Translations under genes and position numbers: made by a program | From: Leucoraja ocellata | Taxonomy: Eukaryota | NCBI GenBank assembly: GCA_036785375.1 | Contig: JAWMAR010000276.1 | Span: forward strand, 1,054,001-1,118,000 | Length of the DNA stretch: 64,000 nt | Direction: 5' to 3' | In this document: positions 28,304 through 54,911 of the stretch, piece by piece | Numbering within the stretch: position 1 is the stretch's first letter | Layout of the letters: every line of letters starts with the position of its first letter | Notes under the pieces: model-generated | The model's database searches: none | Seen by the model: only the letters and a program-made list of their open reading frames with translations | Told to the model about the DNA's origin: nothing

Positions 28304-28358
28304 ATGGATTGTACGTTGAGAAAGATGCTGTTGTCATTGATGCTGTTCCCTAACTTGG
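28304..28358 (+). CDS. Exon: signal peptide
   Basis: gcaATGG Kozak context; MDCTLRKMLLSLMLFPNL; donor G|GTGAGT. An acceptor at 28300 implies an upstream non-coding exon. Confidence 0.75.
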
Positions 28359-31300
28359 GTGAGTGTTCATCTGAATGGGGAGATTGTGTACATTTGTTAT
28401 CCACTAACTGGCTGCTTCTCACAAGTTATGAATCTGATCTTAGAGGCAATTAAGTTTTCTGTTTTATTCATTGCCTAATTTAAGATTGAAGAGTAAACCC
28501 TTTGCTCAACAATATAACAAAGATTCTCACACATTTTTTCTTTCATTGCTTATTTGCCTATTGAGGTGACATTATTCTCCTGCTTTTACCTTCATTTCAA
28601 TCCTTTTTCCCTTCATTTCATTTTGTAACTAAAGTAATATCTTGTAAAGTGTGATAGAGTCAGTAGATGTGGAAACACGTCAGTGGATTGGATTTGTGGC
28701 ATGCTGGAAGCTTTAGCATACCGCAGCCAGAGAGCAGTGCTGAACTACTATCTACCTCTTTGGTGACTCTCAGACTTTCCTTGTTCGGACTTTGCTGGCT
28801 TTACCTTGCACTAAACATTATTCCCTTGTCCAGCACTGTAATACACTGTAAATAAACTGTACACTGCCTGGCTCAATTGTTATCATGTATTGTCTTTCTA
28901 TTGACTGGATAGCACGTAACAAAAGTATTTCACTGTGCCTCGGTGCATGTGTCAATAAACTAAACAACTCTGTTGGAGCACAGGAAGTTTGGAGGTAGAT
29001 GACTCCAACTTTATCTGCAAGTTAACGCATGCATTTTCATTTCCTCTATTTTCCCAGCTGAAGGATCTTTCTCTCGATCCTTTGGGATGTTGAATAGAGA
29101 CATCCTGCTGCCCTGCGCCTTCCATGCTTCATCCAACTTCAATCTGAAAAATCTCATCATCACATGGCAGCGGACAGGCAGTCTCACCGTGGTTTACAGT
29201 TTCTATTCTGGAACAATCCATCGGGAGCATCAGGACAAAGCATTCCTGGACCGCACTCAACTATTTCTCTCCGAATTCACCAAAGGGAATGCGAGCCTGA
29301 AATTGGAAAGAATGTTGTTATCTGATGTGGGAAACTATACTTGTTTTGTAACTGTAGATGATGGAATGCCACACATTGAGAACGTGGTGGAACTAAAATT
29401 AAATGGTGAGTGCATCTTGTGACAGATAGATCGATGTTTTGTTGTGTACATTTCATAGAATTGTAAAGCACAGAAAGGGAATCTTTTGGCCGTCTCATAC
29501 CAATGCTATTCTCTGCAAATCCCATTTGTCTGCATTAGACCAGTGTCTTTCCCATCCAAGTACCTTTCCAAATGTCTTTCAAACATTGTCATAGTATCAC
29601 TTTCTACTACTTCCTCTGGAAGCTCATCCCAGATATTGTCATCCTGTGTGAAAACATTCTCATCAGATCTCTTTTAAAAGTCTCTCCTCTCACCTTGAAC
29701 CTGGTCTTTGTCTCGACCCGCAATCTTATCTGTCCATTTCCCTCCGTGGATGTCGAGTTTCTCCTGCATTTTTGTATTTTGATCAAGATTCCAGCATCTG
29801 TCACAACTTGCATCCCCATTAAACCTGTGCCTTCTAGTTCTGGCTCCCTGCGGAAAAAGACTCTGACTATATCCCATTGATATCCAATTTAAACTGGTAG
29901 AGGCAGAATCCCCGGTTGTCTGGCATTCCAGTGAGTGAAAAACCAGCCTTTCCATTTTCTCATTATAATTACAGTCCACTATTCTGGGCGACATGTGCTG
30001 AATATCTTGTGAATGCTTTTACAATAACACTTCCTGTAACGTGACAACTGGAACTGCACTCAGTATTCCAAATGCAGTGTAAGCAGTGTTTAGTACAGCT
30101 CCAACATGATGTTCCAACTCTTGCAGTCATTGCCCTGGCTTATGAAAGCAAAGAGACCATCCGATTTGTGTTTTGCTATCTCTGGTGATAGGATTGCAAG
30201 TGCAAGTGAATAAGTGCCTCATCTAGGAAGTCTGTATCCCTGGACAGTGGGAAGGGAAGAGATGAAAAAGCAGGTTTTGCAACTTCTGCGATTGCATGAG
30301 AGAGTTTCCCAATCTTGGGAGCGATTGATAATACAGAAGACCGGACCAGGGCAATACATAGAATGTAAAACAGTGCAGCACAGGAACAGGATATTCGGCC
30401 TGCAAGGTCCACGCCAAACATGATGTCAGGTTAAAATAACTGCCCTCTGCCTGCACTCAAACTTTCTTCAAAATGCTGAAAAGGGAGGAGAGGAAAGTAG
30501 TCTGAAGAAGGGTCTCGACCCGAAACGTCACCCATTCATTCTCTCCAGAGATGCTGCCTGTCCTGCTGAGTTACTCCAGCATTTTGTGTCTACCTTCGAT
30601 TTAAACCAGCATCTGCAGTTCTTTCCTGCACAGAGGAAAATATATGTTTGGTGGTCAAGTCTTGTTGGAGCTGCTGGAATTGGCAAAGATGATCCATTGA
30701 ACGGAGAGACAACTGGGTCCAGGGAACTCTGTTGTGTAGGAAGGAACTGCAGTTGCTGGTTTACACCAATGATCGACACACAAAGCTGGAGCAACTCAGT
30801 GGGTCGGGCAGCATCTCTGGAGAAAAGGAATAGGTGACGTTTCAGATCGAGACTGCAATGTCAGTTTGTCGCTCGCCAATCCCTGAACTGACAACAGAGA
30901 TCCAGAAAGAGAAGGGGAGTGTCAGATGCTGTAAATTGGAAGCAAAAATGGAAGGCATTTGAGTTGTGCCTGAGTGCAGGAAGCAGCACTGATATAATCG
31001 TCGATGTACTAGAAGATGAGTTGAGGGGTGTGCCAGAGTTGCCCCAAAACAGTGATAGCTTCCTATATCCCACAAAAAGACAGGCATAGCTTAGCCCATG
31101 TGAACTGCACTGTTGATCTGGAGACTATGGTCATGGTCCATTTGTGACAGGTTTGTATCGTGTGAGCACTTGTTGCTTATAAAAAATTGTATTCAAAATA
31201 GAAGACTTACACTACTATTACACTTGCAATAAAAAAGGGTCCATCAGATTTTCACAATTCTGTTCCCAAATGCAAATTATAAAATTAATTACATTATAAT

Positions 31301-34300
31301 ATATCTTGATTTGAAAATGTGGTTTAGCTCAATTCTTAATTGAACACTAACCATTTGGTTTTTTTTGTGTTCTGAACATCGTAGATATATCGGAGAATAA
31401 TACATGCGGTGGCACCGATCCAGCTTCAGAAAGGAAAAAGGTTGTACTCATACTTCCATTGCTACTTGTCATTTTAATTGCAGTTGGAATTTTGCATTGG
31501 CAAATGAAAAACAAGGAGAAACCAGATATTGAAGAGAGTGAGTAAAATGTTTAGGATTTTGGCCATTAATCACACAAACTGAATACCTATTCGAGAATGT
31601 GTTCAGAACACTGCATTGGGAATGGATTTCTAGGCACTTTCAGCCATAGTGTATATGACATCCTTTGAGAGGAACATGTTCTAACATGTGGTTTATTCTA
31701 TTTCTTTTTAGTGATTCATTTACTGGAAGACAATATAAAAGGTAAAGAACCAACCTCCGTTGAGATTTTCTTAAGTTATGCAGACTTACCTACGTGGAGC
31801 TGGCCGGCTTCGGGGCGTGGAGAGCGGCGGTTGCACATTGATGTGACCCGGCTCCAGTGGATGGTAACACCAGGAGCTCGCGGATCCCCGGTGGGAGACT
31901 GCTTTGCGGGGCACCGGCAGCGGCGACTTCTCCAGCCCGAATTGCGGGGTTGAGAGTGACCTGGAGGGGGGCCCTACAACGCCCGGCGCGGCCTTAATTT
32001 GCCGCGGACTAGCGCCCGCTGGGGGCTTTGACCTCGACTTCGGGAGGGAAATGGAGTGCAGGGGAGAGACAAGAACTTTGCCTTCCATCATAGTGAGGAG
32101 GAGAGCCACTGTGATGGATGTTTATGTGAATAGTGTTGGTGTGTGTTTTGGTTCTTTTATTGTATTGTATGGCTGCAGAAACTACATTTCGTTTGAACCT
32201 CATGTGAGGTTCAAATGACAAATAAAGGTATTGTATATTGTATATAGTTTCTGCCCACAATAGTAGAAGTGGTCTCCTTGTCCACTACTGGAATCTGCCA
32301 TGGAATTAATCTTCAGAAGGGTGTGAAATAATTGTTTTTAGAATGTGGTCGTTGAATGAATAAAATAATTAAATATGAATTTTGAAAGAAAGAACATACA
32401 AAATATATATAAAATCCAGACCTGTTTGAGCAAAGTATCTTAACAAGAAATTAATTTTATTCTTTTCAGGAAGCCCATCCAGTCTCACAGCTCATTCAGC
32501 AGCTTGACCTTTTAAGCCACATCAGGCTAGAATGGCAGATAACTGAAATTATTGATGCAGATGGAATTTGACGGCAGTCTTGTCACTTCCTCATCACCTT
32601 TACTGAGATTGTTTGAATCTTCAATTCCACAGCTGCTGTGGTGGGATTTAGGCTGATGTCACTTGATCAATGGTCCAAGCCTGTAGATATTAATCACTAT
32701 GCCAGCATACTCCACTGCTTGCCCTACTCCTCTCTGTACAGCCTCATAGTGAACCTTGACACCATTGGTTCAATCAGTGTCCCTCACCCCTTGGTCTGGT
32801 GTAATCATACAGTGACCAACGTAGAGTCCCACCAGTATGTCCTGAATGGTACCGTAGTGTTGGGTGCAAGGATAGTCCCTTGTTTCTCACTCCGTTTTGC
32901 TGCCCTCCAAATCATGGATCCATTCTACAATGGAGTTGCATGCTGGAAGATTATAATCTAGCCATTGAGTATTATTTGGCAGGAGGACCGTCATTCTGCA
33001 TCATCTCCAAGCACCCAGGAATCCAAGGTTCACCTTCAAACTGTATCAGATTTTATTATGTGAAATATTTTCATAATATGGATATTTTGAACTGTGTAAC
33101 AAAGTGCCAACCAAAAGCTGGTGTAGATGATGAATGGAAAATCTGCAAGATTTTAATACCTGTGTCAGCAGGGCATACTGACCAACAGTTGGCAAATGGA
33201 ATAGTATAGGTGGTTACTTGATGTTTGGCATGGACAAGGTGGGCTGAAGGGGCTGTTTCTGTGCTGCATAACTCTGACAACTTAAACCTGAAGCGATGTG
33301 GGAATTCTTAAAGGGGATCAGCAATTTAATGGATATCTGATGCTCACAGTTCTCACATTTTGTTAATCCATGATAATAAAATACTTGCTCGTTCTGAGAA
33401 ATGTGTTTTTTTTTCTTTTCTTCAGATGCCATTCTGAATTATAAAGAGTACATCTTGAAAGATAAAATGCATTTATGTTGTTCATTAACACAACGGCGAT
33501 TCGAAAACTATCCGCTTGCCAGAACCATCAATATTACCAACCCGAAGGAACAAGACCTAGATGGTGATCTTATCAGGAGCGATGACTCAAATATTGCACA
33601 AGAAGTACAAATTTCACAACTGCTGTCATTGCTTCGGGAAGAAAACTTCTCAAAGCGAGTCCTGCTGGTAGGTGATGCAGGAGTAGGGAAGAGTTGGACT
33701 GTTGTCAGCATGGAGCAAGAGTGGGCATCTCAACCAACCCATCCCTTGAGGTGCGTCTTTGTTCTCAGATTCCGTGACTTGAATGAGGTTAAAGGAAAGA
33801 CATCTCTCCGGGATCTGCTGAAGAAGCATTGCACACCTTTGTCATCAGTCCTAACAGAACTCCTCTCGAACCCTCAAGATGTGTTGATCATTTTGGACGG
33901 GCTGGATGAATTCGCCCATCAGTTGCAATGGAATCCATCAGGTTGTGATTTCGACCTGGATAGTGAGGCTGAAGTAGGTGTTCTTGTTTCCAAACTAATA
34001 TTCAAGAACCTCCTTCGAGAAGCCCAGGTGTTGGTTACCTCCCGGTGGAATACCAAGCAGATAGAATTTAACAAGAAGTACTTTGATCAGCTTTTTGTTA
34101 TCTCTGGCTTTACCAATGATCAGCTGAAAAGATATTGTGAGGTGTTTTGTGGAGAGAAGCAAAAGGCGGAAGTAATGTTTCAACGCATTACAGAGAATGC
34201 AACCATCAAATGTCTGGCTTCCAATCCCCTCAACAGCTTCATTCTGTGCAATATTTTGGACAAGTGTACCAGCTCTCAAGCAAATGTACCAGTGACAAAT

Positions 34301-37300
34301 AGCAAAGTGTTTACATTGTTGCTGTACAGTCTGTTTAACTGCAGCACGAGTAAAGAAACAGACGCTGAGAATAAGAGTGAAGAGGAGAAGCAATTGTTTA
34401 AAGACACCATCCTGAAACTGGGAGAACTATCCTTCAACTCTCTGCTATCAGGGAAACTTAAAATAAATGTGACTGATCTGAAGACCTATGGAATAGATCC
34501 AGACATCCTTTCAAAATATCTCTCAAATCTTGTGCTGGACTGTAAATGCCAAGGAGTCTTTGAGTTCCACCATGCAGTGCTGAAGGAACAATTTGCAGCT
34601 TTGTATTGTGCTACTTTACTCAACAATGAAGCTGAAGAGTTGGTCAAGTGTCTGGATCTGTGGTGCTTTGGGAAAATGCCACTAAATCAAATGAGCCAAT
34701 TTTATTTGCAATCTTTTCAACCTGACCACACAGAGAAACTGTACAATTTTCTGAGGTTTCTCACTGGCTTCTTAACCGCAGGAAGAGATGGCAAGTTGTG
34801 GAACTATACAACTCCTCTCCCCCCTTCTACAGCCAGAGCTCTCACAACATGGTTCAAAAACAGCCTTCAGCGAGACATTAAGAAGGCAGAATTGCTGAAT
34901 TTGATGCACTGTCTCTTTGAACTGAATGATGCCACTGTAACGGCAGAAGTATCTCCTTGCATCCGAGATGTGGGTTTTCACAACGTTTCTCTGAGCCCAC
35001 TCGATCTGCGTGCTTTGTGCTACTGTCTCAATCATTCCACCGTGGAGGAGATGGATTTGAGGCACTGTAGCATTGGTGATAAAGGAATAAAGCAGCTCCA
35101 AGAAATACTAGTCAAGTGCAGAACTCTTTTGTGAGTAATGATTTTCAAAAGAATATTAAGCTCCAGTTGCACTAATCTACCTTCTTGCATGCACAATGTT
35201 TGTTGACATGTTTTATACTTTTGTCACATTTTATGCCCTACATGTCCTGATTTATTCTAGCCCAGCTAATATTTGTGCCTGAAAGTTGTAATGAAATATA
35301 TACAAATGGAGATACTACTCTTCAAGACTAGAATGGAAACAATGTGTGCAATTATCTCCCTCAACTACATTGTTCTATGGTAACCCCACCCTCCTCCAAT
35401 GTTGCCCTGTGGAGCCACAGAGCTTCATTGTAATAACCACAAGGGCAGAGATTTAATTCTATGCATTCATTCTAGTTGTTGCTCTTATGAATACACATGC
35501 ATTGATCACTATAAAAATACTTGGGGGCGGTTTGCTTTATCTGCAAATACACCTGTTGGGGGTTTGATCTTTCTGTAAATCTTGGCCCACCCCATTTCCA
35601 ACGCAGCAGTGTCAATGGACAGGTATTCATAAATCTAGAGGAACAGCATCTCCTATCTCACCTGGGTGGTCTACAACCTAATGGTATGAACATCAAATTC
35701 ATGTAACCCCTCTGTCTATTTGTTGTCTCCTGATACACCTAGATTATCTGTATGTCACTGTATGTCATGTTGTTACTTGTGGGTGGAGCACCTAGGCTAA
35801 TTCCTTGTATGTGAATACTTGGCCAATAAACTTACTAACTTACTTACTTGTCTCATATGCCCCTTCTTTTCAAACCCAACCCCTCTTTCAGTTTCTGTAA
35901 TCACCCTACCCCATCCCAAATGATTCCATCTGTGTATCACTTGCACATTACACCCACTTGATTTCCCAATTCCCTCCACTGTTCCCCTTTTGCCCACTAT
36001 CCCACCCTAATGTGGTTCCACTCACCATTATCCTTTCTTATCAGATTCTATAATCTACCCATGTACCCATGTACCCATTATCACCTCCTCAGCTTCAGGT
36101 TCATCTCAGCATTCCTCATCTGGGCCCACCTATTACTTAAGGACACAAAGTGCTGGGGCAACTCAGCGGGTCAGGCATCATCTTTGGAGAACACGGATCA
36201 CTGACGTTTCAGTTCGGGACCCCACTACAGACTGATCATTAGTTTGAAGAAGAATCCTGATATGAAACATAATCTATTACGTTCTCCAGAGATGCTGCCT
36301 GACCTGCTGAGTTACTACAGCATTTTGTGTTCTTTTGTGTAAATCGGCATCTACAGTTCCTTGTTTCCTCTTTTACTGTACCACTCTACTGCTTTTTTTT
36401 AAATTGCTGCTTTTTTCCCTTTTTCCTTCCGCCCACAATATCTAAAAGAATATGTGATTCTGTTCCATTCTGTTTGTAGTTTGTTTGTTTGTTTGTCTTT
36501 TTGCACAAAGTCCGCGAGCATTGCCACTTTTCATTTCACTGCACATCTCGAAAGTGTATGTGACAAATAAACTTGACTTGACTTGACTTGACTTTATGCT
36601 CTAAATCCTCGACCGCAAACATCGACTGTCTGTCTGCCGCCACCGATGCTGCTTAACCCGCTGAGTTCCTCCACTAGTTCGTTTTTGCTCCAGATTCCTG
36701 CGTTTGCTGTCTCTTGTATATCCAAATATCCAAACATTGATTATTATCAACAAGGTTGAATTGATTTTGTGTATTAGAAAGTGCTCAAGCAGAAACAAAG
36801 GATCTCTTAAACTATGTAATTACCTTAAGTCATTTTAAGCCCCATTTGCACTATCGTTCAAAAATCATTGCCCAGACACATGTGTTAGACCAAGGTTAGA
36901 CTCTGCTCTCCCAGCAGTGCCACAATTGTTTATTTTGCAGCTACCTTTGCAGGCAGCAGTTTGTGAGGATTGTGTTCTGTCCCCAGGCACTCGGGTCTCT
37001 AATTGTTTTCAACGTCTTGTGTTTCCAGGGTAAGCTCCAACAAACTGACTGTAAAGTCAGCAAAGAGTTTGAATGCCGTCCTTGAAGACCCAAAGTGCAG
37101 GATTGAGACATTATCGTGAGATTTTTCATCACATAAATCCTCTTGTAAAATTCTCCAAGTTTCTATAGAGCTTCCAATCGCTGACATTTGCCATTTGGTT
37201 CCGTTTTCAGGTGTGGTACAAACTCTTTTGGTTCGGCGGGGGCTCAGATTCTGTGGAAAGCTCTGGCACGAAACAGAAGTCTCAAAATCCTTCGCCTGTA

Positions 37301-38772
37301 TGACAATGGGATCACAGTTGAAGGCACAGAGAACATGACTCAGTACCTGACATGCAACAAAACTCTCCAGAAACTCTTGTAAGTAGCTGGTAGATGTGAG
37401 AACATAAGCAGTATATTTGATAAATGCTCACACGGATTGGTTTGTGTGCAATTATGTTGGCGTTGGTGAGTTTGAGATGTGTTATGTAAATGTGAACATG
37501 TAGAAACAAGGTGCGGCAGATGCTAGTTTACCCGGGAAAGACACAAAAAGCTGGAGTTATGCAGCGGGTCGGGCAGCATTCCTGGAGAACATGGAAAAGT
37601 AACGTTTTGGGACAAGACCCTTTGCTCAGACTGATTAGTCTGAAGAAGTGCCCCGACCTGCAGGTTTGATGAATCTGATTGATCAGTTTGATCTGATTGA
37701 TCAATTCAGACTGATTAAACTGAAGAAGGGTCCCGACTAGTAATATTATATATCCATGTTCTCCAGGGATGCTGACTGACCAGCTGAGTTACTCCAACAT
37801 TTTGTGTCTTTCCTTGTATAAATGTGGCTTTTTTTTTCTTTCCCAGTCTCCATGGGACCCTCTACCACACAAGGAACACTGCTGTTCCAGGCATGACCGT
37901 ATGTTTTTGTTTCAGTGTGAAGGAGCGGCAGGAAAGGAGCAATGATTGAGACAGCATTCTAACTCAAGACTGTGGCTGAATCACCATTAGCAATTGCACT
38001 AAGATTAGCTGGCAAAGATTACGCCTTTCGGAAGGAACTGGGCACATTCTTAATTGAGTAATAAATAAAAGAAACGAGTTGTGGAAATAGTTTAGATCAG
38101 TAAAAGGAAATTAGGATATAAGGGAACTTGTGTTCAAATTTTCAAATAGGAATAATAATATTTGAAGAAGAAACATTTGCATGGATTAGAGAAAGAGTAG
38201 AAAGAGTGAGCAAGTACAAAGTTCCCTATATGTCTGCACAGTCATGATGCTGAATGGCCACTTCCTCATTGTAGAATTTGATGATTATTAAGATACCGTG
38301 AATGAGATGGTTGGAATTTAATTTTCTAATTCCTGATTTAAATACGATTGAAGCATTCACTAATTTTCATTGCCTTGTTGCTTTCAGTTTATGTGTAAAC
38401 AAACTTGATGACCTTGAACAGAAAAACATTCAACAAGTCGAAAAGCTGTGTCACGGGCTAAAGATCGTCACTAAAATCAGAGACGATGAAGAGCTCTTAC
38501 TCCGAGTTGAAAGTCAGGTTCAAATGCTTCCCTCCCTTGAGCAGAGTTACGGCACAGAGTGGCTGTGCAAACTATTGAAATCCATTCTGAAAGACTTGGG
38601 AGATGAGAGTACCATACCTGATGTAGACACCCGGGTAAGGATAGGAAAGATAAAAGCAAATATTAACAAATATCTTCAGAAGAACAAAGTCACCATGATT
38701 GATGTTCCAGACACGGAGAATGTGTTGCAGCTCCATACCCCTGCACCACTTCTTCTGAAACAACTTCCTTAA
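28304..38772 (+). CDS. Predicted type I membrane protein: signal peptide, B7-like IgV, TM, NACHT, LRR and helical tail (976 aa)
   Basis: Exons 28304-28358, 29058-29405, 31385-31537, 31712-31741, 33426-35130, 37029-37115, 37211-37378 and 38388-38772. All GT-AG, phases 1,1,1,1,2,2,2; 2931 nt with no internal stop. Confidence 0.72.
29058..29405 (+). CDS. Exon: B7/butyrophilin-family IgV domain (CD276/VTCN1/HHLA2-like)
   Basis: DILLPCAF..LIITWQ..VVYSFYSG..QDKAFLDRTQLF..EFTKGNASLKL..SDVGNYTCFV is the typical B7-family V pattern. Confidence 0.92.
30502..30530 (+). ncRNA. Minimal hammerhead ribozyme motif of the Penelope-type repeat (representative copy)
   Basis: CTGAAGA-AGGGTC-TC-GACCC-GAAAC-GTCA; similar copies at 7071, 18577, 41685 and 56302 (+) and 47126-47154 (-). 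Confidence 0.7.
31385..31537 (+). CDS. Exon: stalk and transmembrane helix
   Basis: DISENNTCGGTDPASERKK-VVLILPLLLVILIAVGIL-HWQMKNKEKPDIEE; donor A|GTGAGT. Confidence 0.85.
33426..35130 (+). CDS. Exon: NACHT NTPase, helical/winged-helix domains and first LRRs (NLRC3/NLRP-like)
   Basis: Walker A GDAGVGKS (33671-33694), Walker B LIILDGLDE, sensor-1 VLVTSR, WHD FEFHHAVLKEQFAA, LLNLMHCLFEL, and LRR MDLRHCSIGDKGIKQL. Lies within a 577-aa open frame. Confidence 0.95.
37029..37378 (+). CDS. Two ribonuclease-inhibitor-type LRR exons (37029-37115, 87 nt; 37211-37378, 168 nt)
   Basis: Phase 2-2 exons of 29 aa and 2x28 aa: SSNKLTVKSAKSL..KCRIETL and NSFGSAGAQILWKALARNRSLKILRLYDNGI. Confidence 0.88.
38388..38772 (+). 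CDS. Terminal exon of the NLR: last LRR plus ~100-aa C-terminal extension
   Basis: Acceptor ttgctttcag, phase 2; LCVNKLDDLEQKNI... to TAA at 38770-38772. Confidence 0.8.
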
Positions 38773-43975: not shown

Positions 43976-44049
43976 GAGGACTTTGAGCATTTTTAGGCAC
44001 TCTACCTGTCCTCATCCCCTGCTGTCTTCTTGAATTATTTGCAATTTAT

Positions 44050-45150
44050 TTTTGACACAGGTCAGATATCATCTATGGAAAGTGAAAAGAGTATACGTCA
44101 TAGATAGGAGATTCCTCAGCAAGACGTTTGATGAGGTTTTGCACGGTGGATGGCTCTGGAAGGCTTGGTCACGTGGGATCCAGAGAGAGCTAGCCAACTG
44201 ATTACAGAATTGGTTTGATACAGAATAAGGGTGGTACGCCTCACGATCAGTGCTGGGCCCATTGCTGTTTGTGGTTTACATCAATAATTTGGTTGAGAAT
44301 GTACAAAGCATGATTAGCAAGTTTACAGATGACACTAAAGTGGGAGGTATTGTAAATAGTAAAGATAGTTATCAAAAATTACCTCAAGTGAACTGAGGAA
44401 TGGCTAATGGACTCTAATTACAGGTAAGTGTGAGATGTTTCATTTTGGGAAGTCAAACCAGGGCAGGACCTTCACAATAAATGGTAGGGTCCTGGGGTGT
44501 ATGGTAGGGCACAGGAATCGAGGAGTACCGGTACATAGTTCTCTGAAAATGGTGTCATGGGTAGATCTGGTGGTCAAGAAAGCTTTCAGTATATCGGCCA
44601 TCATCAGTCAGGGTATTGAGTATAAAGGTTGGGATATTATGTTACACTAGGACAAGACATTGGTGGGGCCACATTTGGACCATTCTGTTCAGTTTTAGTC
44701 TCCCTGCTATAGGAAAGATGCTGTTAAGCTTGAAAGACTGCAGAGAAGATTTATGAGGATTTTATCAGGACTCATAGGCATGAGCAACAGGGAGAGGTTG
44801 GATGGACTAGGGTTTTATTCCTTGGAGCACAGGAGGTTGAATTGTGATCTAGAGGTGTGTAAAATCATGGAGGGATAGATGGGGTTAATGCAGTCTTTTA
44901 CTAGAATGGAGGGGGGATCAAGTTTAAGGGAAACATTTAATAGGAATCTGAGGAGCACCTTTTTCACACAGGGTGGTGGAAAAGAACCGCCAGATGGGGT
45001 AGTTTGAGGCAAGAACCATTGGCAAAATTTAAAATACATTTGTACGTGTATCATGGATAGGAAATGTTTAGAGGGATCTGGGTCAATGCGGGCAGGTGGG
45101 ATTAATGCATATGGGCACCTTGGTTAGCATGGACAAGTTGGGCCTAAGGT
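44050..45150 (+). mobile_element. Degraded CR1 LINE fragment (approximate)
   Basis: SKFTDDTKVGG and HFGKSNQGRTFTINGRVL. Confidence 0.75.
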
Positions 45151-45899
45151 CACTGTGCCTTGGTCTCGCAGATACTGCCCGGCCTGCTGAGTATTTACGG
45201 CATTTTCTTTTTTCATTTAATGTGGAGTCTCAGTTATGAAATAGACAATAGGTGCAGAAGTAGGACATTCGGCCCATCGAACCAGCACCGCCATTCAATG
45301 TGATCATGGCTGATCATCCCCAATCAGTACCCCGTTCCTGCCTCCTCCCCATATCCCCTGACTCCGCTATTTTTAAGAGCCCGATAGCTCTCTCTTGAAA
45401 GCATCCAGAGCACCGCCCTCTGAGGCAGAGAATTCCACAGACAGGGAGAGTCAAAAGACTGCAAATGCTGGAATCTGGAGCAAAAAGTACTGGAGTAAGT
45501 CAGCGAGCCAGGCAGCATCTGTGGAGACAACGGACAAGGCGACGTTTCGGTTTGGGATCCTTCTTTCGGACGTTATGTTGATCACAGAAGGTGAATTAAA
45601 GTGAGCGCGTCTGTGGTCAGTTGGGCTGTCACTGATCTAGAACCTGTTGCTTAGAATGCACCAAAGATAGACACAAAATGGTGGAATAACTCAGCGGGAC
45701 AGGGAGAGAAGGAATGGGTGACGTTTCGGATCGAGACCATTCTTTAGGCTGAAGACGATGCTGCTGCCCCGCTGAGTGACTCCAGGGTCTGTCTTCGGTT
45801 TAAACCAGCATCTGCAGTTCCACGCTTAGAATGCACCAACGTGTTGGACGTGGAGAGCCTCTCTTGCTCTAACATATTTGGTGTCCATTGCTGTCCCGT

Positions 45900-46089
45900 C
45901 AGCTGATCGAGGGGAGGTTGGTGAGATGACACCGCCTCTGGTGAGTCACCAGGGAGCGGCCACAGCCCGCCCTATAGACGAGGCGCAGCGTGAGCCGGGC
46001 GGAGCTTCCCCTAACGCGGACAAGGCCAATGCAAAGATCCTATAGCGAGCTCCCAGGAAGCGCGGAGTGAAAGCTTACACTCGGTGAGT
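45900..46089 (+). promoter_or_regulatory. CpG-rich promoter and putative non-coding first exon of the legumain-prodomain gene
   Basis: CpG-rich patch with GGGCGG, CCAAT (~46026), GGAAG and a consensus donor TCG|GTGAGT at 46083/46084. Confidence 0.55.
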
Positions 46090-47396
46090 TCAGTTCCCAT
46101 TTGGGGGACATCCCTCCCCCAACCTCTGTATCTGAATATGTAAGATTTATTCTGTTGAAATTGACCGTGGATTATTGTAAATCGCTTTTTAAAGTGGAAA
46201 GAAGTATCAATGTAACAAATTTAAAGTGTAATCCAATTAAAAGACGTTTGAAGAAGGGTCTCGACCCGAAGCGTCACCAGAGATGCTGCCTGTCCCGCTG
46301 AGTTACTCCAGCATTTTGTATCTATTTTTGGTGAAAACCAGCATCTGCAGTTCCTACATTAAAGATGTTTTCTCCTGGGAAGAACATGATTAAATTGGTA
46401 AATATAATAGCTGGGATGTTGATGATCAGGGAGGTTGGTGGGATTAGGGAATCATACAGTGTAGGGCGAGGGGGACGAGGAGTCAAGGAGGAAGGCACAA
46501 AGTGCTGGAGGACTCAGTGGGTCAGGCAGCCTCCCCCAGTGGCGGGCACAGACACACGATGTTCTCGGTCGAGACCTTTCTTCAGCCTCCGGTCAGGTTT
46601 TGCCCCCTCGTGTTCAGTTTAGGAAAAGCCTGAAGCGGAAACTCTGACAGAATTCCTTGATCGACATCCCCTCTTCACATGGTACACTTCCTTATCTATG
46701 TATCTCCCTCTCCCCTGACCCGAAATGTCACCCATTCCTTCTCTCCAGAGATGCTGCCTGTCCCGCTGAGTTACTCCAGCATTCTGTGTGTATCTGGCAG
46801 AAATGCCACTGGCCCCCTCCTTCCCGCGCCGTGAGATATCTGTCAGGTCACAAGATTGTCACATTCCATGCGGTGGCGTCGATGCAAAATCCTCAAGACG
46901 AGCCTTTTGGCGAGAGAGTGACAATCTGCCAACCTTTTTTGATTTGATTCACGGCTCAGTTATCTGGTGGTTACCAGGAAGCAAATACACTGCCATAGTC
47001 CCTACAACACAACAACCATTCTGCATCGCACAGTGTCTCAGCAGCCGTGTAAATCTCGGAAATAAGACACAAAATGCTGGAGTAACTCAGCTGGGCAGGC
47101 AGCATCTCTGGAGAGAAGGAATGGTTGACGTTTCGGGTCGAGACCCTTCTTCAGTTTCTCGGGGTATTTCTGAACTCATGAAATGATATGCATGAGAATG
47201 AACTGTAAAAGCCTCTGAATGTTTTCATGTTTAAGTCACTGATTAGGAGAATTCTGATGATAAATATTGATTCCTGCTCCTTGAGGTGTCCAGACTCTCT
47301 GTGCTGCTCCCTTAGGATTGGAGAGCTTTGTTTCATTGTGAGAATTACAATATTCCCATGTTGCTTCCTGCTGCAGGCACGGGCAAACCCACAGTA

Positions 47397-50384
47397 ATGG
47401 CAGGAATGGAGACTGTGGCACCGTGCGACGTACCTGTTACTCTTCTTGAGAATAGGATCAAAGCTGCTAAGGATCCAGAGGAGAAGGAAAAGCTGCAGAA
47501 AGACCTGGACCATCTCCTTGAGGTAATGGTGCAAAGTTGTTCCTCTACCCTGGGCCCCATACGAGGCATCTCCACTCATCGGGAACCAGCAAGGAGACTG
47601 TTGGATGGTGCTAGTCAGTGTGGGGCAGACATTCTCACTAACCTGCCTACAGTGCAGGGAGACACACACTGGTGGGTGTGCTGCTGTCAAATGGGGCTCA
47701 TGCTCCAGGGAATTCTTCATTGTTCCCAGGACGGGCAGTAAAATGATGGATTCCCAGTCCTTGTCTACAGTTTAGTTTATTGTCACGTGAACCGAGGTAC
47801 AGTGAAAAGCATTTGTGGCGTGCTATCTAGTCAGCGGAAAGACAATACATGATTACGTAAATCGCGCCATTTATAGTGTACAGATACACGATGTGGGTTC
47901 TTCCTGTGTGGACGGGGTGTAACCAAACAGCTCTGTTGTGTTGCAGGTGAGGGAGCTAATCCGAAAGACAGTGCGAGAGATTGTTACTCTGGCCACGGAC
48001 TCCGAGGAACAGGCTGAGCGAGTGCTCGGCCCCAAGAAGCGTCTCACGGAGCGGGAAAACTACCGCTCTGCGGTGGAGTATTTCCAAATGCGGTGCTTTG
48101 ACTGGCACAATCCAGAGGTACGTCTGCGATGCATTCACATAGTACAGAGATAGCTGCCAAGGTGAGTTCATGCGGCCATTGTCAAGTCTATATTATCCAG
48201 AGGCCAAAGAGAAAATATATCAAAAGCTGGGTCAACGTGTTAGCTTTAAGGAGGGGCGAGAGGCAGGGTGGTTGGGGGGTGAATTCTGGAGCATGAGGGC
48301 GAGATAGCAGAGGGTTTGGCCACCGATGATGGTGCGGATGAAGACAATGAAGCATATACTGTAGCAGCTGAGGGGGTGTGGAAACACTGCGGGAGTTGCA
48401 GGGTTACGGAGTTGTCGAGGTGTAGAGACCTGGCCAAGGAGGGTTTTACACCATTGTAAACAAGGGTAGGTCACTTGGACCCAGGTGTTGTGATGGTAGG
48501 CCATGACGTGGATGGCAGAAGTTTGGATGAGCTCGAGGTACCGCAGTGGAGAGACTTGGCTGCAACCAGGAGATCAATCGTTAAATCAAGAATAGAGGGA
48601 TGATATCCTGGGTGAACAGGGATGGGGACTAGGGTCTGATGAAGGGTCTCAACACCAAACCTTCATCAATCCAGGTTCTTCACAGATGCTGCCTGACCCT
48701 CTGAGTTACTCCAGCACTTTGTGTCCTTTTGTGTAAATCAGCATGTCTGCATTTCCTTGTTTCTACTGGGTGGCCCTCGTCACCCACTCTTCCAACACAC
48801 ACAGGCATCAAAGAGGTTAAAATCCAGAAATAGCTTCCTACCTGCAGTTCAACCCCTGAATGATAACCCCCGCACCTGTAGGATAGATGCTTGACACACC
48901 TACAATCAAAACCCCACACACTGACACTATACCCTGAGGAGTCCCATCCATTGGGAGCGAAAGACACATGGCCAGTCTGGCTCTGCTTCAATCACCTCAG
49001 AACATGGGTCGGACGGTGCAAGCCTTCATGCTGAAGTGGGGGTACAACAACGAACAACTGAATGTGACTACGGGGATGCAACCCAAACTAGTTGAGAATT
49101 TTGGAGTATCTCATGGTTGTGAATGGTGTGGAAAAGAGGAATTTCTCTGTTCCAGTCTGGGCATTGTAAATAATTGTTCTGATGTATATTGTTCCAGTAT
49201 GTTACTTAATGATGGGTAGGAAAATGAGTTGTGGGGATGACATAAGGGTGACACATAGAGGCAAAAAAAAGGGTGCGCATGGCCAAAGATTGGGTTAATG
49301 TGAGAGAATGTGGGGTAGTCCAATGTTGTGCTTTGTTGTTACAGTTTGAATATGCTCTTCACCAGTTGAGTCCCTTCGTCAATTTATGTGTGGAGAAGAT
49401 CCCACTGACACGGTACAGTAATACCCAACGCTCTCTCTTTGCTCAAGTAATCAAAGCAAATAACATCTGGAATTAACTCTTAACCGATCATTGATCCCTT
49501 TAACAAAAAACTCGTGTAGGTTCATTTGCCTCTGTAAATTGCCCCCTGTGTGTAAGCATGGGTGAGAAGGTGGGATGGCATGGAATTAGTGTGAGCGGGT
49601 GATTGATTGTAGGTTTGGACTCCGTGGGGCGAAGGGCTTGTTTCCATGCTGTATCTTTAAACTAAACTAAACAGCATGGTAGTATGTTTCTGTGCCACTT
49701 AATGTAGTGGATGTTATTTTATGTAATTAAACTGATCGGGTCTATTATACTCAGAGTAATGGGGGCTAAGCTCCGCAATACAAATATTCAACAGGGATAT
49801 CATGAGTTAGGTCAGGTTACCCAGAGTAAAAACAGGAATAGCCTTTGTCAAACTTGAAATAAACATCAAAATCATCCTTCGAGTCTGAATTAGCAGCAGG
49901 CTAACTTTGTACAGTCTTGTCTTTTTGAAGCAGGGAATCCCGGGCAGAGGGATAGTTTACAGCCAATGACCCAGCACAATCAAAGCCTTTTAGTCATCAG
50001 TTCAGGACCATTCAAGTCCTAAGGAGAATTAAGGAAAGTGCTGGTAATATAATCATGAAATTATTGTCAATAAGCTGACAGTATTGAAAAGCATTAAATA
50101 TACGGACTTATTTTTGTCCAAAATAAGTGTCTCCGCTTTGTCATCTTGAATCAAACATTGGTTGAAATTGTTCATTTTGGTCTCTTGTCTTGGAAAGGAG
50201 CCTTCAAAATTGTAACAGATCTTTGCCTCTTTTCTTAACAAATGTAGATTGTGTTCGATTTTTTTGTAACGCTTTTTTTTTCTGTGCTATCCCCATGTCC
50301 ACAAGCTGCATTGTAATCACTCCTTTGTTTTTAAACAGGATCAAGGAAGCGGTTGACCAAGTCAGTGAAAAGCTGAAGAAATGA
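47397..50384 (+). CDS. Legumain-like, C-terminal prodomain (LSAM) only; ~136 aa, 4 exons
   Basis: Exons 47397-47522, 47947-48117, 49345-49412 and 50339-50384. DVPVTLLENRI / LIRKTVREIV / RCFDWHNPE / FEYALHQL..VNLC / RIKEAVDQV align with the human legumain C-terminus (DVPLTIMKRKL..LIEKSVRKIV..HCFNWHSPTYEYALRHL..VNLC..RIKLSMDHV). The start codon is uncertain; possible acceptors at 47315 or 47376. Confidence 0.85.
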
Positions 50385-53300
50385 AGAGCTGGCTCTCCTC
50401 ATCTTCAGCACAGCAGAGGGAGGGACCCTTAAGGACCTGTCCCTCCCTCGGCCTGTGTGCTTTCCAACTGGAATTGTAATTTTTTTTAGAGTCTTTCTCT
50501 CTCTCTCTCTCTCTGCTGGTCAGATCATCTTGCTTGCAATAACTGGGAGGAGGTTTCTGCTGAAAGCAAATCATGGGAGACAAAAGCAAATTATAGACAG
50601 CTTTTATACTTTAAATAATCAAATGATTACACAATGATACCAATGCTACCTCAGATGGTAGAAACATTTCTGTGCCATTAATATTTGTAATATTGAAAAT
50701 TCATTCTCAATAGGTATGGGGTCAGATTAGTTAAATATACTTGATTATCACAAATCAATTTACTATTATTTTTTTTTCCAAATCTTTATTTTAAAGATTT
50801 AAACAGCTTCTGAGTGGCCTACCTTGATTTCTCTCACCATTCACATCTGCACTGTGGGGCAATTTAATCAGAAGTTGACAATCGGGCTTCACTAAATCTC
50901 CTTTAGGCAACGGCGAGGCTTAATTTTGCAGTGATTTTAGTCATTTCTTACCAGCAGGACAGGCGGTTAGTTCTACGGTGGCTGAGCCTTGAGAACAAGA
51001 CCCAGACTGATTCATAAGGGCATTTCTGAGAGAGTGCAGTATCTGTGTGCATGCCGACTTCTGGGTGAGATTTATACCAAAGCCATCCAACCTTTACCAG
51101 GATGTAATGTAAAAGACCCTATCCAAATATTAGTGAAGATGAAAGTAGACAAAAATGCTGGAGAAACTCAGTGGGTGAGGCAGCGTCTATGGAGTGGAGG
51201 AAATAGACAACGTTTCGGGTCAAAACCCTTCTTCAGAAGTGAAGATGAATGTGGATTCCCGGCCAGCGTTTACTGCTAAACGAGACCTTTTGGCCTGTCC
51301 TTTGTTTAATATCATTCTGTGTACAAACATTCCCAATGGTAACTACGTTTCAATTGGCTGGGACGGCTTCAAGAACAGTGCTTGAGAAATGTCAAATAAA
51401 TTTGAATCTTTTTTTTTAATTATTGCTTTTATTTTAAGTAAATGAAATGATTAAGTCATTGTTCTGATTATTTGTTCTCTGTGTTAGTATTTCTAATTAT
51501 TGCTCTTCTGATCACATTATGTTTTCAATAACTAGAGTTTTCCAATACAGAGTAAAGCAGCGACACTTTCTCATTGAACCCACATGTGAGGACTAGGACT
51601 TGTAGCAACTAATGCTTCCATTAAGAGGAGGAGAAGAAGTATGATTGCAAGTTGCTTATTTATTTGTAGAATCATTTGTGGGCATATTTGCTTCTAAATC
51701 AAGAGATTTCGGATTTAAGTCTAACTTCAGGAACCTGAGCACACGTTAGAACATCCCAGATTGTTGGAGATGACCAAGTATGCCAGCTGTTGAATTTATC
51801 TCCACCCTTACTCGCAGGCGAATGGGGTTAGGAGGGAGTGATAGATCGATCAGCCATGATTGAATGGCGGAATAGACTTGATGGGCCGAATGGCCTAATT
51901 CTAACCTATTCCTATGACCATATGAAACAGGCCATTGTTAGCTGTGGCCTATGTGAAAACGAGTGTAGACGTGGAGTACATCTCATTTCCTGCTTCCTCC
52001 TCCCTACTACAACCAGTCTGAAGAAGGAGCCTGAACTGAAAGGTCACCTGTCCATTCCCTCCACAGATGGTACCTGAGTTCCTCCAGCACTTTGTGCTTT
52101 GTCCACTATCCTGCAGGTTGTCCTTGATGAGCTGATGCTTTGACTAAATCTCTTTTTCTTTAGTCTCGCCGAGATTCAGGTCTGTGTTTTGACAGAGAAA
52201 GAGAGGCTGGAAATGAGGGTAAGATCAGATTACAGGCATTTGCGTTGGACACTGTCCAGGAATGCAACGAAGGAGACAGATAGAGTTCTGAAGGTTCAGG
52301 TAAAACGGAGCTATTATTTCTGTAACAGTGTTTTTCTAACACACAATCTCCTGGCAGGTGAGTTTTAAGATGCCATTGCTACTTTAGGTAGCTTTGCTCG
52401 TGAGAGAGTGAGAATAGACCTTGCACATCCCATCGTGCTGTGTTAGAACCACGCCTCATATATAACTAATGTCTGACCCTTGCACAAAGTCAATGGCAAT
52501 AATAAACTCTAGATGCTTTTCATCTTCTGTAACCAAAGCTCTGCTCAGTTCCAGAATGATTAATATCAAAGCTAGAAGTATATCTGAGAAGAGGGGAATC
52601 TAATTTCTCCGACAGCTGACAAATTCATTAGCAATGCACTGTCAGCTCAGCCGTACAATATGCCCAACAAAAGTCATCCCAACGTGAACTAATGTTGAAT
52701 CGATTATTTATTTGTTAGGTTTCTCCTCTGCCGTATAGTGCTGAGTGTCAGTCTCTGTCTTAGTACCTCGTGCCAAGTGGCTGCTCTCCAGCTACTGATT
52801 AAACAAAATGAATACAGGTAGGATATTCATTCATGCGGGTAACTCGATATCTTCATTTAGGCTCTGCACACAAGTGCTTAAAGCAAAGTGATTCGGGTGA
52901 TTCTCCTGGTTGACGACTGTATGGGGGAGGGCATATTGACTGGTTGCCTCACTGTCAAGTTCAACAAGTCAAAAGCTAAAGAACAAATTGATTGATTGAT
53001 ACTTTATTGTCACGTGTACTAGGTACAGTGAGATTCCTTCTTTGCAAACAGTACAAGTGTGCAAGAGTTGCCATGGAAAGGACGCTGGCAAGGTTACAAA
53101 AGTATTTAATATAATGCCTCTTCCTTCTCTCAGAGAGGTAAACGCTGCTTGGTCCATCACAGCTACTGACCTTCAAAAGGATTTAGAGGAGGTGCTGTCC
53201 TAAAAGCCAATCCGACCTCTCTGTCCTGGGTCTCCTCCATGGCCAGAGCGAGCAACATCGGAAATTGGAGAAACAGCACCTCATATTCCGCTTGGGGAGT

Positions 53301-54133: not shown

Positions 54134-54911
54134 AGGGGGTGTCCCACTGGGGCGACCTAATCCGCGAGTTAAGAAGAGTGTCTTTGACCTTGAAGCTCGA
54201 GGGCACTCGCCTGAAAAACCTCCAGCTGGATCGACCGTCAGCGTTGAAACTGCNNNNNNNNNNNNNNNNNNNNNNNNNNNNNNNNNNNNNNNNNNNNNNN
54301 NNNNNNNNNNNNNNNNNNNNNNNNNNNNNNNNNNNNNNNNNNNNNNNNNNNNNNNNNNNNNNNNNNNNNNNNNNNNNNNNNNNNNNNNNNNNNNNNNNNN
54401 NNGGAAAGCAGGGGAGCTCTGTCTGAAATTCACACACGCGATGAAAAGAAAGCTAAAAGGCGGCTGCACAGTGTACGGTAAGTCCTTTAAAGAGTGTGGA
54501 GAGGGGGAGGGGGGTGAGAAGGAGAGAGAAGGGGGGGGGGGAGAAGGAGTGGAGACGCTTAAGAAGTATAATAAAGTTTAGCGGGCATTTTACCTAACGG
54601 CCAGTTTCCCTTGGTCCTGAAAACTCCAATGAGCCAATCATAATGCCCGGTCAGTGAAGGAGATTGCCTACGGCTGCCCTCGACTGCCTGTAACTAAAGA
54701 GCGACCCCACTCCACTGCACTACGAGTTAAAAAGAACCATGCCGACCAAATTTTACTCTGGCTGAGTTAGCGTGTTTGCGGGAACTTCCCTCGAACATGA
54801 AGGAGAGTTCCAGTGACCTCATAGGACCAAGTGAGGACCATGCTGCGAGTTTGAGTCAAGGGCAAATTTATCTAAACTCGCAGATTAGGTCACCACAGTG
54901 GGACAGCCCCT
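54134..54911. mobile_element. PIF/Harbinger-like MITE nested in CR1, spanning the assembly gap
   Basis: TAA|AGGGGGTGTCCCACTG..GACCTAATC.GCGAGTT ... AACTCGCAGATTAGGTC..CAGTGGGACAGCCCCT|TAA (3-bp TSD). Confidence 0.8.
54254..54402. other. Assembly gap (149 N)
   Basis: Run of N. Confidence 1.

Follow-up and report, generated by a model that had tools for sequence, protein, structure and literature searches.

The question raised by this locus is whether the C-terminal prodomain (the lid) of the protease legumain can persist as a gene of its own, and what such a lid could do without its enzyme. Within the window, a 64,000-nucleotide stretch of Leucoraja ocellata contig JAWMAR010000276.1, four forward-strand exons (47377–47522, 47947–48117, 49345–49412, and 50339–50384) with AG/GT ends splice in frame into an open reading frame of 411 nt, running from the ATG at 47397 to the TGA at 50384. 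The 136-aa product consists of the end of the legumain activation peptide plus LSAM and has neither a catalytic domain nor a signal peptide. Coding exon 1 (146 nt) carries the active-site plug segment (residues 5–12), activation-peptide helix α-6, and the beginning of LSAM; exon 2, whose 171 nt equal the length in the canonical gene, encodes Arg44 (equivalent to R342), Asn80 in place of C378, and Cys92 (C390); exon 3 (68 nt) encodes His105 in place of R403 and Cys114 (C412); and the last exon, ending at the TGA, encodes Ser131 in place of C429. The donor of exon 3 is weak by a simple consensus score, yet it is present in both copies of the gene in this genome. A likely 3′ UTR occupies 50385–51400, with the first AATAAA at 51395 and a putative extent.

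A likely promoter and non-coding first exon lie upstream on the same strand (45900–46083), in a CpG-enriched patch with a GC box (45997–46002), a CCAAT box (46026–46030), and a donor at 46083 that also occurs in the second copy. The enrichment is modest, with repeats inside the patch (CpG observed/expected 0.68–0.76 in 400-bp windows starting at 45400–46000 vs. 0.06–0.37 at 44000–44800). A RefSeq model from Amblyraja radiata carries an N-terminal extension that matches positions 45990–46083 at 88–93%; the junction 46083^47377 is a predicted one. Ahead of the start codon, the reading frame is closed by an in-frame TGA at 46068–46070. Both the four intact, in-frame legumain-type exons and the CpG/CCAAT patch with its donor, as described in the original prediction, were therefore recovered.

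This lid-only legumain gene is conserved in sharks, rays, and several ray-finned groups. Orthologues of 133–141 aa occur in 15 shark/ray clusters, with 68–82% identity between rays and sharks, and relatives are found in sturgeon, tarpon/bonefish, milkfish, suckers, characins, and catfish; spliced transcript-sized contigs also exist, and a transcribed, conserved protein of ~136 aa without a signal peptide is thus supported. The alignment used below comprises 36 lid-only proteins (16 shark/ray rows and 20 ray-finned). No lid-only protein named from chimaera, gar, bichir, lobe-finned fish, or tetrapods appeared among the database matches and the 20 of 95 representatives checked by name, an absence that is weak evidence given word-index searches of one-per-cluster libraries. 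In L. ocellata, the gene lies within a recent segmental duplicate (95–98.5% identity) in which >80 kb, including a neighboring NLR gene, was copied as a block. Between the two copies there are three synonymous and two non-synonymous differences (pN/pS 0.2), a number too small for a test. The flank annotation covers 100 of the 232 ORFs that passed filtering, which is not enough to argue for a paralogon.

Catalytic exons are missing from the vicinity. Five catalytic-domain sequences and nine pieces of exons from the legumain gene of this genome retrieved nothing above chance from the 104 kb of JAWMAR010000276.1:1,034,001–1,138,000 (best unrelated E values 0.03–0.85), whereas the same five queries matched the canonical gene on another contig (C99) with E values down to 4e-26. 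Because the sole N stretch in the window is at 54254–54402, no gap conceals exons upstream, and hidden catalytic exons are ruled out by the searches of the 104 kb around the gene and of the genome. The canonical gene on contig C99 is 36% identical to the lid-only protein, retains all four cysteines, and ends in exons of 195/171/65/43 nt vs. 146/171/68/46 nt here. A search of this genome for a signal-less catalytic partner found none; it scored 10 and 19 candidates, missed PIGK (a PF01650 member), and could let a very divergent signal-less legumain escape. A whole-genome PF20985 search gave no match and is uninformative, as its controls likewise gave none. A signal peptide is found neither in the skate gene nor in the 16 shark/ray rows, and the sole candidate running from an ATG to a phase-1 donor in 38.8–47.4 kb is not hydrophobic. 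The absence of catalytic exons nearby and of a signal-peptide exon in 38.8–47.3 kb, both proposed originally, is accordingly upheld. Hydrophobic N-terminal extensions occur in 3 of the 36 models (Albula and two Megalops, i.e., 3/20 ray-finned), with a 10-residue hydropathy of 2.6–3.3 vs. 2.4–2.9 for canonical signal peptides. Set beside the MEROPS C13 peptidases, the protein is without the caspase-like His-Cys catalytic domain, the signal peptide, and the set of four LSAM cysteines.

In legumain, the LSAM cysteines pair as C378–C412 and C390–C429. The skate protein has Cys at positions 10, 92, and 114 only, and alignment to human prolegumain agrees with the earlier reading of Asn and Ser at the C378 and C429 positions and of retained C390 and C412. 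The C378 and C429 equivalents are missing in all 36 lid-only proteins, and six, all characiform, have lost all four cysteines. Two features had gone unnoticed, namely, the extra Cys10, which is invariant in the 16 shark/ray rows, and the presence within the protein of the activation peptide's end (helix α-6 and the active-site plug). The relationship to prolegumain is evident from a phmmer match to 4fgu (E 1e-23) and from the PF20985 profile, which scores 34.3 bits against a curated cut-off of 25.2 and is matched by all 36 members. The predicted structure (pLDDT 88.4) begins its first helix at residue 12, with residues 1–9 predicted to be disordered (pLDDT <50), and superposes on prolegumain 4nok with Z 16.4 and rmsd 2.4 over 133 aligned residues, activation-peptide helix α-6 and the helical LSAM fold being present. 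A search of the ESM Atlas with the protein gave no usable match. The R342 equivalent is basic in 36/36 proteins; the K316 position is Gln/Glu in 36/36, and the R403 position is basic in only 2/36. Net charge ranges from −1 to −8 in the shark/ray proteins vs. −2 to +4 in canonical segments, and Glu45, Asp60, Glu63, and Arg122 are kept only in the lid-only family.

In trees, the split of the lid-only lineage precedes the shark/bony-fish divergence, which is >400 million years old, and an origin by truncation of the genome's own legumain in the skate lineage is rejected (AU p 0.0002). The family groups with signal-less full-length teleost legumains (support 100/95, and 98/92 with the Cys columns removed), a grouping whose alternative has an AU p of 0.096 and which is thus not proven. 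These legumains (Chanos XP_030630733, Electrophorus XP_026877345, and Albula KAG9330020) have no hydrophobic N-terminus and have also lost the C378/C429 equivalents, as has an oyster legumain likewise starting without a signal peptide; of the three, those of Chanos and Electrophorus retain the catalytic His-Gly and Cys positions. Whether the lid-only form arose once is neither shown nor rejected by the two trees (support 85/41 and 66/16).

The plug offers a clue to function. Val7 and Asp11 are present in 36/36 lid-only proteins, position 5 is Asp/Glu in 35/36, and position 9 is Gln/Asn/Ser in 34/36 (Gln 15, Asn 14, Ser 5, Pro 1, and Gly 1). The start codon falls 4–8 residues ahead of the position whose side chain occupies the zymogen S1 pocket, which is Ser307 in the human enzyme (PMC4357240) and Gln346/347, preceded by Val-Val-Asn, in plants (PMC7489914, PMC10240336), and the lid-only start is close to that of a natural AP-LSAM fragment of plant legumain (PMC7489914). 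Because residues 1–9 are predicted to be disordered in the free protein, its own fold does not account for Val7 and position 9 being constrained. In canonical legumain above pH 4, the cut LSAM remains attached to the catalytic domain, which it stabilizes (PMC9788469), and legumain has also been reported in the cytosol and nucleus (PMC9788469, PMC9579014). The lid-only protein may therefore be a cytosolic, separately encoded cap that docks on a legumain-type catalytic domain, blocks its active site, and steadies it at neutral pH, a reading to which we would give a little under an even chance. A legumain duplicate would have arisen before the shark/bony-fish split and then shed its signal peptide along with one Cys per disulfide. 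Its descendants would be the signal-less full-length enzymes of some teleosts and the lid-only form, the latter binding in trans by means of the N-terminal plug (Val-Ala-Gln/Asn/Ser-x-Asp) and helix α-6. For this skate, where the search recovered no signal-less enzyme, canonical legumain escaped from the lysosome could be the target. More tentatively still, jawed fishes may possess a second, cytosolic legumain system, apparently missing in tetrapods, in which a signal-less, disulfide-free lineage has divided into an enzyme (in some teleosts) and a separate, putatively trans-capping lid (in sharks, rays, sturgeon, and several teleost groups); the lid would be the first dedicated prodomain-derived inhibitor/stabilizer of the legumain family. 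The original prediction had offered a trans regulator of legumain or an adaptor for the adjacent NLR; the retained plug favors the former, and the latter was left with adjacency.

Several observations run against a cap. Capping is electrostatic, with a positive lid on a negative enzyme (PMC9788469), whereas the shark/ray proteins have shifted toward acidity and the lid-only family has lost K316 and R403. Plug position 9 is Pro in this skate protein and in the little-skate cluster, and the tarpon/bonefish extensions (3/36) are as hydrophobic as real signal peptides. Because the canonical enzyme is mainly lysosomal and its free mature form denatures above pH 6 (PMC9788469), lid and legumain may rarely meet. 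The plug motif is ancestral in invertebrate and skate legumains, and its conservation may therefore partly be structural inertia.

The same charge shift would fit a helical, disulfide-less domain that now serves in the cytosol as an interaction module for some unrelated partner, legumain contact having been lost, an alternative that is a real contender though doubtful as it stands. The family-specific Glu45, Asp60, Glu63, and Arg122 fit this alternative, and conservation of Glu45, Glu63, and Arg122 only among lid-only proteins suggests another partner; the gene is also retained in a genome where a cytosolic catalytic partner was not found, and a legumain C-terminal fragment is reported as active on osteoclasts (in work cited by PMC9788469). 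Such repurposing, however, leaves unexplained why the plug residues of an otherwise disordered tail are kept in 34–36 of 36 proteins. The Albula and Megalops extensions could instead indicate a secretory/lysosomal route, via an unseen signal exon or unconventional export, by which the protein caps or chaperones legumain there, but this is unlikely: none of the 16 shark/ray rows has such an extension, the in-frame stop precedes the ATG, the one candidate leader exon is not hydrophobic, the protein has no N-glycosylation sequon, and the six characiform rows have dispensed with every LSAM cysteine. It is very improbable that the protein serves the adjacent Ig-transmembrane-NACHT-LRR receptor as a death-fold-like adaptor. 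The gene does lie on the same strand, 8.6 kb downstream of the last exon of the NLR, which is without a death-fold Pfam domain, and LSAM has been called DD-like (PMC4357240); nevertheless, joint presence in the second copy reflects the block duplication and is not independent, no solved death fold (DD, CARD, PYD, or DED) is among the 50 matches listed in either wide fold search (an absence that is indecisive by the search's own rule), Z 5 was reached by only 1 of 48,161 chains in the wide fold search, and no death-clan Pfam is among the 25 families listed for the 36 members. A neutral truncated duplicate or assembly artefact is scarcely credible, since despite its place in a recent segmental duplicate the gene keeps an open frame across 15 shark/ray clusters and has 68–82% ray–shark identity, ray-finned relatives, spliced contigs, and 36% identity to the canonical gene, with a skate-specific origin rejected; both this and hidden catalytic exons, the two grounds of refutation named in the original prediction, thus fail.

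Among known systems, the closest is the C-terminal prodomain of prolegumain (MEROPS C13, PF20985, 4FGU/4NOK), with which the lid-only protein shares sequence, fold, last-four-exon layout, plug motif (with Pro at position 9 in this skate), and R342; it differs in being encoded by a separate gene, in the loss of C378, C429, K316, and R403, and in its acidity and Cys10 in sharks/rays. The signal-less legumains of Chanos, Electrophorus, and Albula share the missing hydrophobic N-terminus and both Cys losses but retain a catalytic domain. CARD-only and PYD-only decoys are likewise truncated duplicates that keep only a pro-domain; they are true death folds that bind homotypically, whereas no death-fold match to the lid-only protein appears among the matches listed. 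As in propeptide-like trans inhibitors, the lid-only gene is a free gene homologous to a protease pro-region; the cathepsin inhibitors CTLA-2α/β and Drosophila crammer (MEROPS I29) are of this kind, with inhibition in trans measured (PMC3286859). Their fold and protease clan are unrelated, crammer is considered lysosomal, and inhibition by the lid-only protein is putative.

In a literature mostly excluding subscription papers, nothing was found on any vertebrate legumain that is prodomain-only or signal-less, and the proteins carry the database label "legumain-like." Two sources may bear on novelty, namely, a 585-bp "Legumain" orthogroup common to catfish and mormyrids (PMC12107551) and a supplementary elasmobranch LGMN alignment (PMC5278576). 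What LSAM does once released is still an open question, and its two disulfides make the human domain hard to produce (PMC12320161); a natural disulfide-free LSAM with its own gene makes lid function testable without the enzyme. Cytosolic legumain has been linked to cancer and neurodegeneration (PMC9579014), and the protein offers a candidate scaffold for legumain inhibitors or stabilizers that withstand reduction. The comparison also brings to light an apparently unstudied lineage of signal-less legumains in fish.

The four exons of the original prediction are real, with AG/GT ends and an open frame at 47377–47522, 47947–48117, 49345–49412, and 50339–50384 of the window (+ strand), and together they make up a lid-only gene, so called because its product comprises just the end of the legumain activation peptide together with the LSAM domain. 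Splicing of these exons gives a frame of 136 codons opened by the ATG at 47397, and the product matches residues about 307–428 of human prolegumain (phmmer, E 1e-23; human number = lid-only position + 298). The nearest named proteins come from skates, and the repeats and base composition of the DNA indicate a cartilaginous fish. The LSAM disulfides pair C378 with C412 and C390 with C429 (human numbering). Alignment bears out both the loss of two cysteines (C378 → Asn80, C429 → Ser131) and the retention of the other two (C390 = Cys92, C412 = Cys114) in a domain described with two disulfides (PMC12320161; PMC7489914). A CpG-enriched patch lies 5′ of the coding exons and terminates at the donor at 46083, and the first exon of the Amblyraja RefSeq model is the homologue of the sequence upstream of this donor. 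In this genome the upstream exon contains an in-frame stop at 46068–46070, and translation would therefore begin at 47397. A scan for signal-type exons across 38.8–47.4 kb returned a single candidate, which lacks hydrophobicity.

The predicted absence of catalytic exons also held: five catalytic-domain queries (first 290 residues) and the canonical legumain gene in nine exon pieces located none in the 104 kb around the lid-only gene, and the sole match at E 0.003 came from a short query, whose prodomain part fell on coding exon 1. The window occupies G000:C276:1,054,001–1,118,000. The canonical gene, on contig C99, has catalytic exons and all four LSAM cysteines, and its product shares 36% identity with the lid-only protein over 128 columns. 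A second, intact lid-only copy is situated 334 kb away in a block of >80 kb (G000:C276:1,380,001–1,460,000, stretches L014–L021, same orientation) with 95–98.5% identity to the window, and the same five and nine queries found no catalytic exons in 80 kb around it. The block carries second copies of both the NLR and lid genes, the two lid-only copies differ by three synonymous and two non-synonymous changes, and the second could be either a genuine duplicate or a haplotype that was retained. A 13-codon upstream ORF (46029–46070, + strand), which overlaps a CCAAT box and ends at the in-frame stop preceding the donor, is common to both copies and may be part of the transcript.

Judging from assembled contigs, the lid-only gene is expressed: at least 12 proteins of 136 aa, among the 15 listed of 20 cluster members, occur in Logan only, and their longest contigs (1242–1373 nt) appear from their size to be spliced, because the coding region covers 2,988 genomic bases. 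One Logan protein is identical to the product of the second copy, and two combine Lys49 of the window copy with Val127.

With the Rhinoraja protein as query, 16 of 46 candidates matched (15 clusters from sharks and rays, 133–141 aa long and named 'legumain-like', and one chimeric model), and a profile search gave 39 matches among 5,273, adding 23 members from ray-finned fish or near them (sturgeon, bonefish, tarpon, milkfish, razorback sucker, characins, and catfish), of which three are unnamed Logan contigs; both searches covered proteins of 63–300 residues. A degenerate opah protein had its top score against the lid-only family. Among longer proteins, a search with exon 2 returned just two 136-aa members among 15 candidates, and no fusion of the lid-only protein was shown in a length-unrestricted HMMER search with 95 matches. 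In an alignment of 16 shark/ray and 20 ray-finned rows (four partial, degenerate, or redundant rows omitted and one isoform added), the C378 and C429 equivalents are missing in 36/36 rows, while C390 is retained in 16/16 shark/ray and 14/20 ray-finned rows and C412 in 16/16 and 6/20, respectively; all four are missing in six characiform rows. The C390 and C412 equivalents are therefore independent of each other, and the LSAM domain can do without any disulfide. Identity between rays and sharks is 68–82%, and by these comparisons the gene is old and conserved. RefSeq and UniRef list the lid-only proteins with automatically assigned names, and no literature description of one was found. Elasmobranch legumain shows positive selection at catalytic-domain sites (PMC5278576), with the lid-only gene unmentioned in the available part of that paper; the word legumain is absent from PMC8455134, the available parts of PMC9604545 and PMC12310710 contain nothing relevant to the gene, and a legumain orthogroup that may or may not be related to the lid-only gene is listed in an excerpt of PMC12107551. 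The lid-only gene, a free pro-region gene, is real and undescribed, and a gene of this kind is new for legumain.

Also among the HMMER matches are full-length legumains of the teleosts Chanos (P0046), Electrophorus (P0047), and Albula (P0044) that begin without a signal peptide; they lack the C378 and C429 equivalents and are likely cytosolic enzymes, apparently undescribed. In trees of 128 columns these fall with the lid-only family and apart from the canonical vertebrate legumains (100/95), as they do after removal of the four cysteine columns with 38 rows kept (98/92), and long branches meet in these trees. Descent from skate legumain alone was rejected (AU p 0.0002); placing the signal-less enzymes together with the canonical legumains (p 0.096) or the shark lid-only proteins with all canonical ones (p 0.096) was not, and support for a single origin of the truncation (85/41 and 66/16) is in neither case decisive. 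One of 20 invertebrate rows, oyster P0116 (Crassostrea virginica XP_022329830), starts without a signal peptide and lacks the same two cysteines; it is placed among invertebrates and its loss is apparently independent, which suggests that the two-cysteine loss follows loss of secretion.

The model built from 36 sequences (pLDDT 88.4) has residues 1–9 below 50, followed by seven helices. Every fold match listed is a legumain proenzyme (4nok, Z 16.4, rmsd 2.4, 133 aligned), and a wide search gave one of 48,161 representatives at Z 5, a plant proenzyme. No death-fold domain was among the matches listed in the fold searches; the lid-only domain may nonetheless share the topological likeness to death folds described for LSAM (PMC4357240). 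In the zymogen, the S1 pocket is occupied by the residue directly before helix alpha-6, Ser307 in human (PMC4357240) and Gln346/347 in plants, where it is preceded by Val-Val-Asn at the interface (PMC7489914, PMC10240336). The lid-only N-terminus lies a few residues before this position, and the plug residues (those filling the active site in prolegumain) are Val7 in 36/36 rows, Gln/Asn/Ser9 in 34/36, and Asp11 in 36/36. The plug position is Asn, the preferred P1 residue of legumain, in 14/20 ray-finned rows. These residues are kept although the tail that carries them is predicted to have no order in the free protein; retained substrate-like binding in trans to a legumain-type cleft is proposed, and the protein is tentatively read as a separately encoded cap for a legumain-type protease, at slightly below an even chance. 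This would be a predicted parallel to propeptide-like cathepsin proteins, which are free and bind their protease in trans (PMC3286859). After cleavage, LSAM remains attached to the catalytic domain at pH values over 4 and stabilises it (PMC9788469), and legumain has been observed in the cytosol and nucleus (PMC9788469, PMC9579014).

Counting against a cap, net charge is −1 to −8 in shark/ray lid-only proteins versus −2 to +4 in canonical ones, the K316 and R403 equivalents are lost, Pro9 is at the plug position in this skate lineage, and searches of this genome turned up no signal-less enzyme. New residues conserved specifically in the lid-only family also count against it, and service to a new, unrelated partner is a serious if somewhat doubtful explanation. 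Signal-like N-terminal extensions in 3/36 models are a further point against the cap, and a secretory role is unlikely. The neighbouring NLR lacks a death fold by domain annotation, as the original prediction had claimed; adjacency is the sole link between the NLR and the lid-only gene, its repeat in the second copy being due to block duplication, and a role as NLR adaptor is very unlikely. A neutral remnant is exceedingly improbable for a gene conserved from rays to ray-finned fish.

The NLR gene (28304–38772, + strand) lies upstream of the lid-only gene, and its exons at 28304–28358 (spliced in frame), 29058–29405 (IgV, B7-like V-set), 31385–31537 (transmembrane, 19-residue hydropathy 3.05), 31712–31741 (spliced in frame), and 33426–35130 (NACHT, WH, HD2, and LRR start) splice with no stop across 763 codons into a leader, IgV, transmembrane segment, and NACHT-LRR. 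The gene is predicted to encode a single-pass Ig-TM-NLR receptor, on which no literature was found. V-set and C1-set immunoglobulin exons at 4930–5463 and 8127–8480 (+ strand) are probably one or two more immune receptor genes, and acyl-CoA thioesterase/BAAT-family exons (L025:1996–2463, 7755–7997, and 8531–8809, − strand) lie about 11–18 kb upstream of the window.
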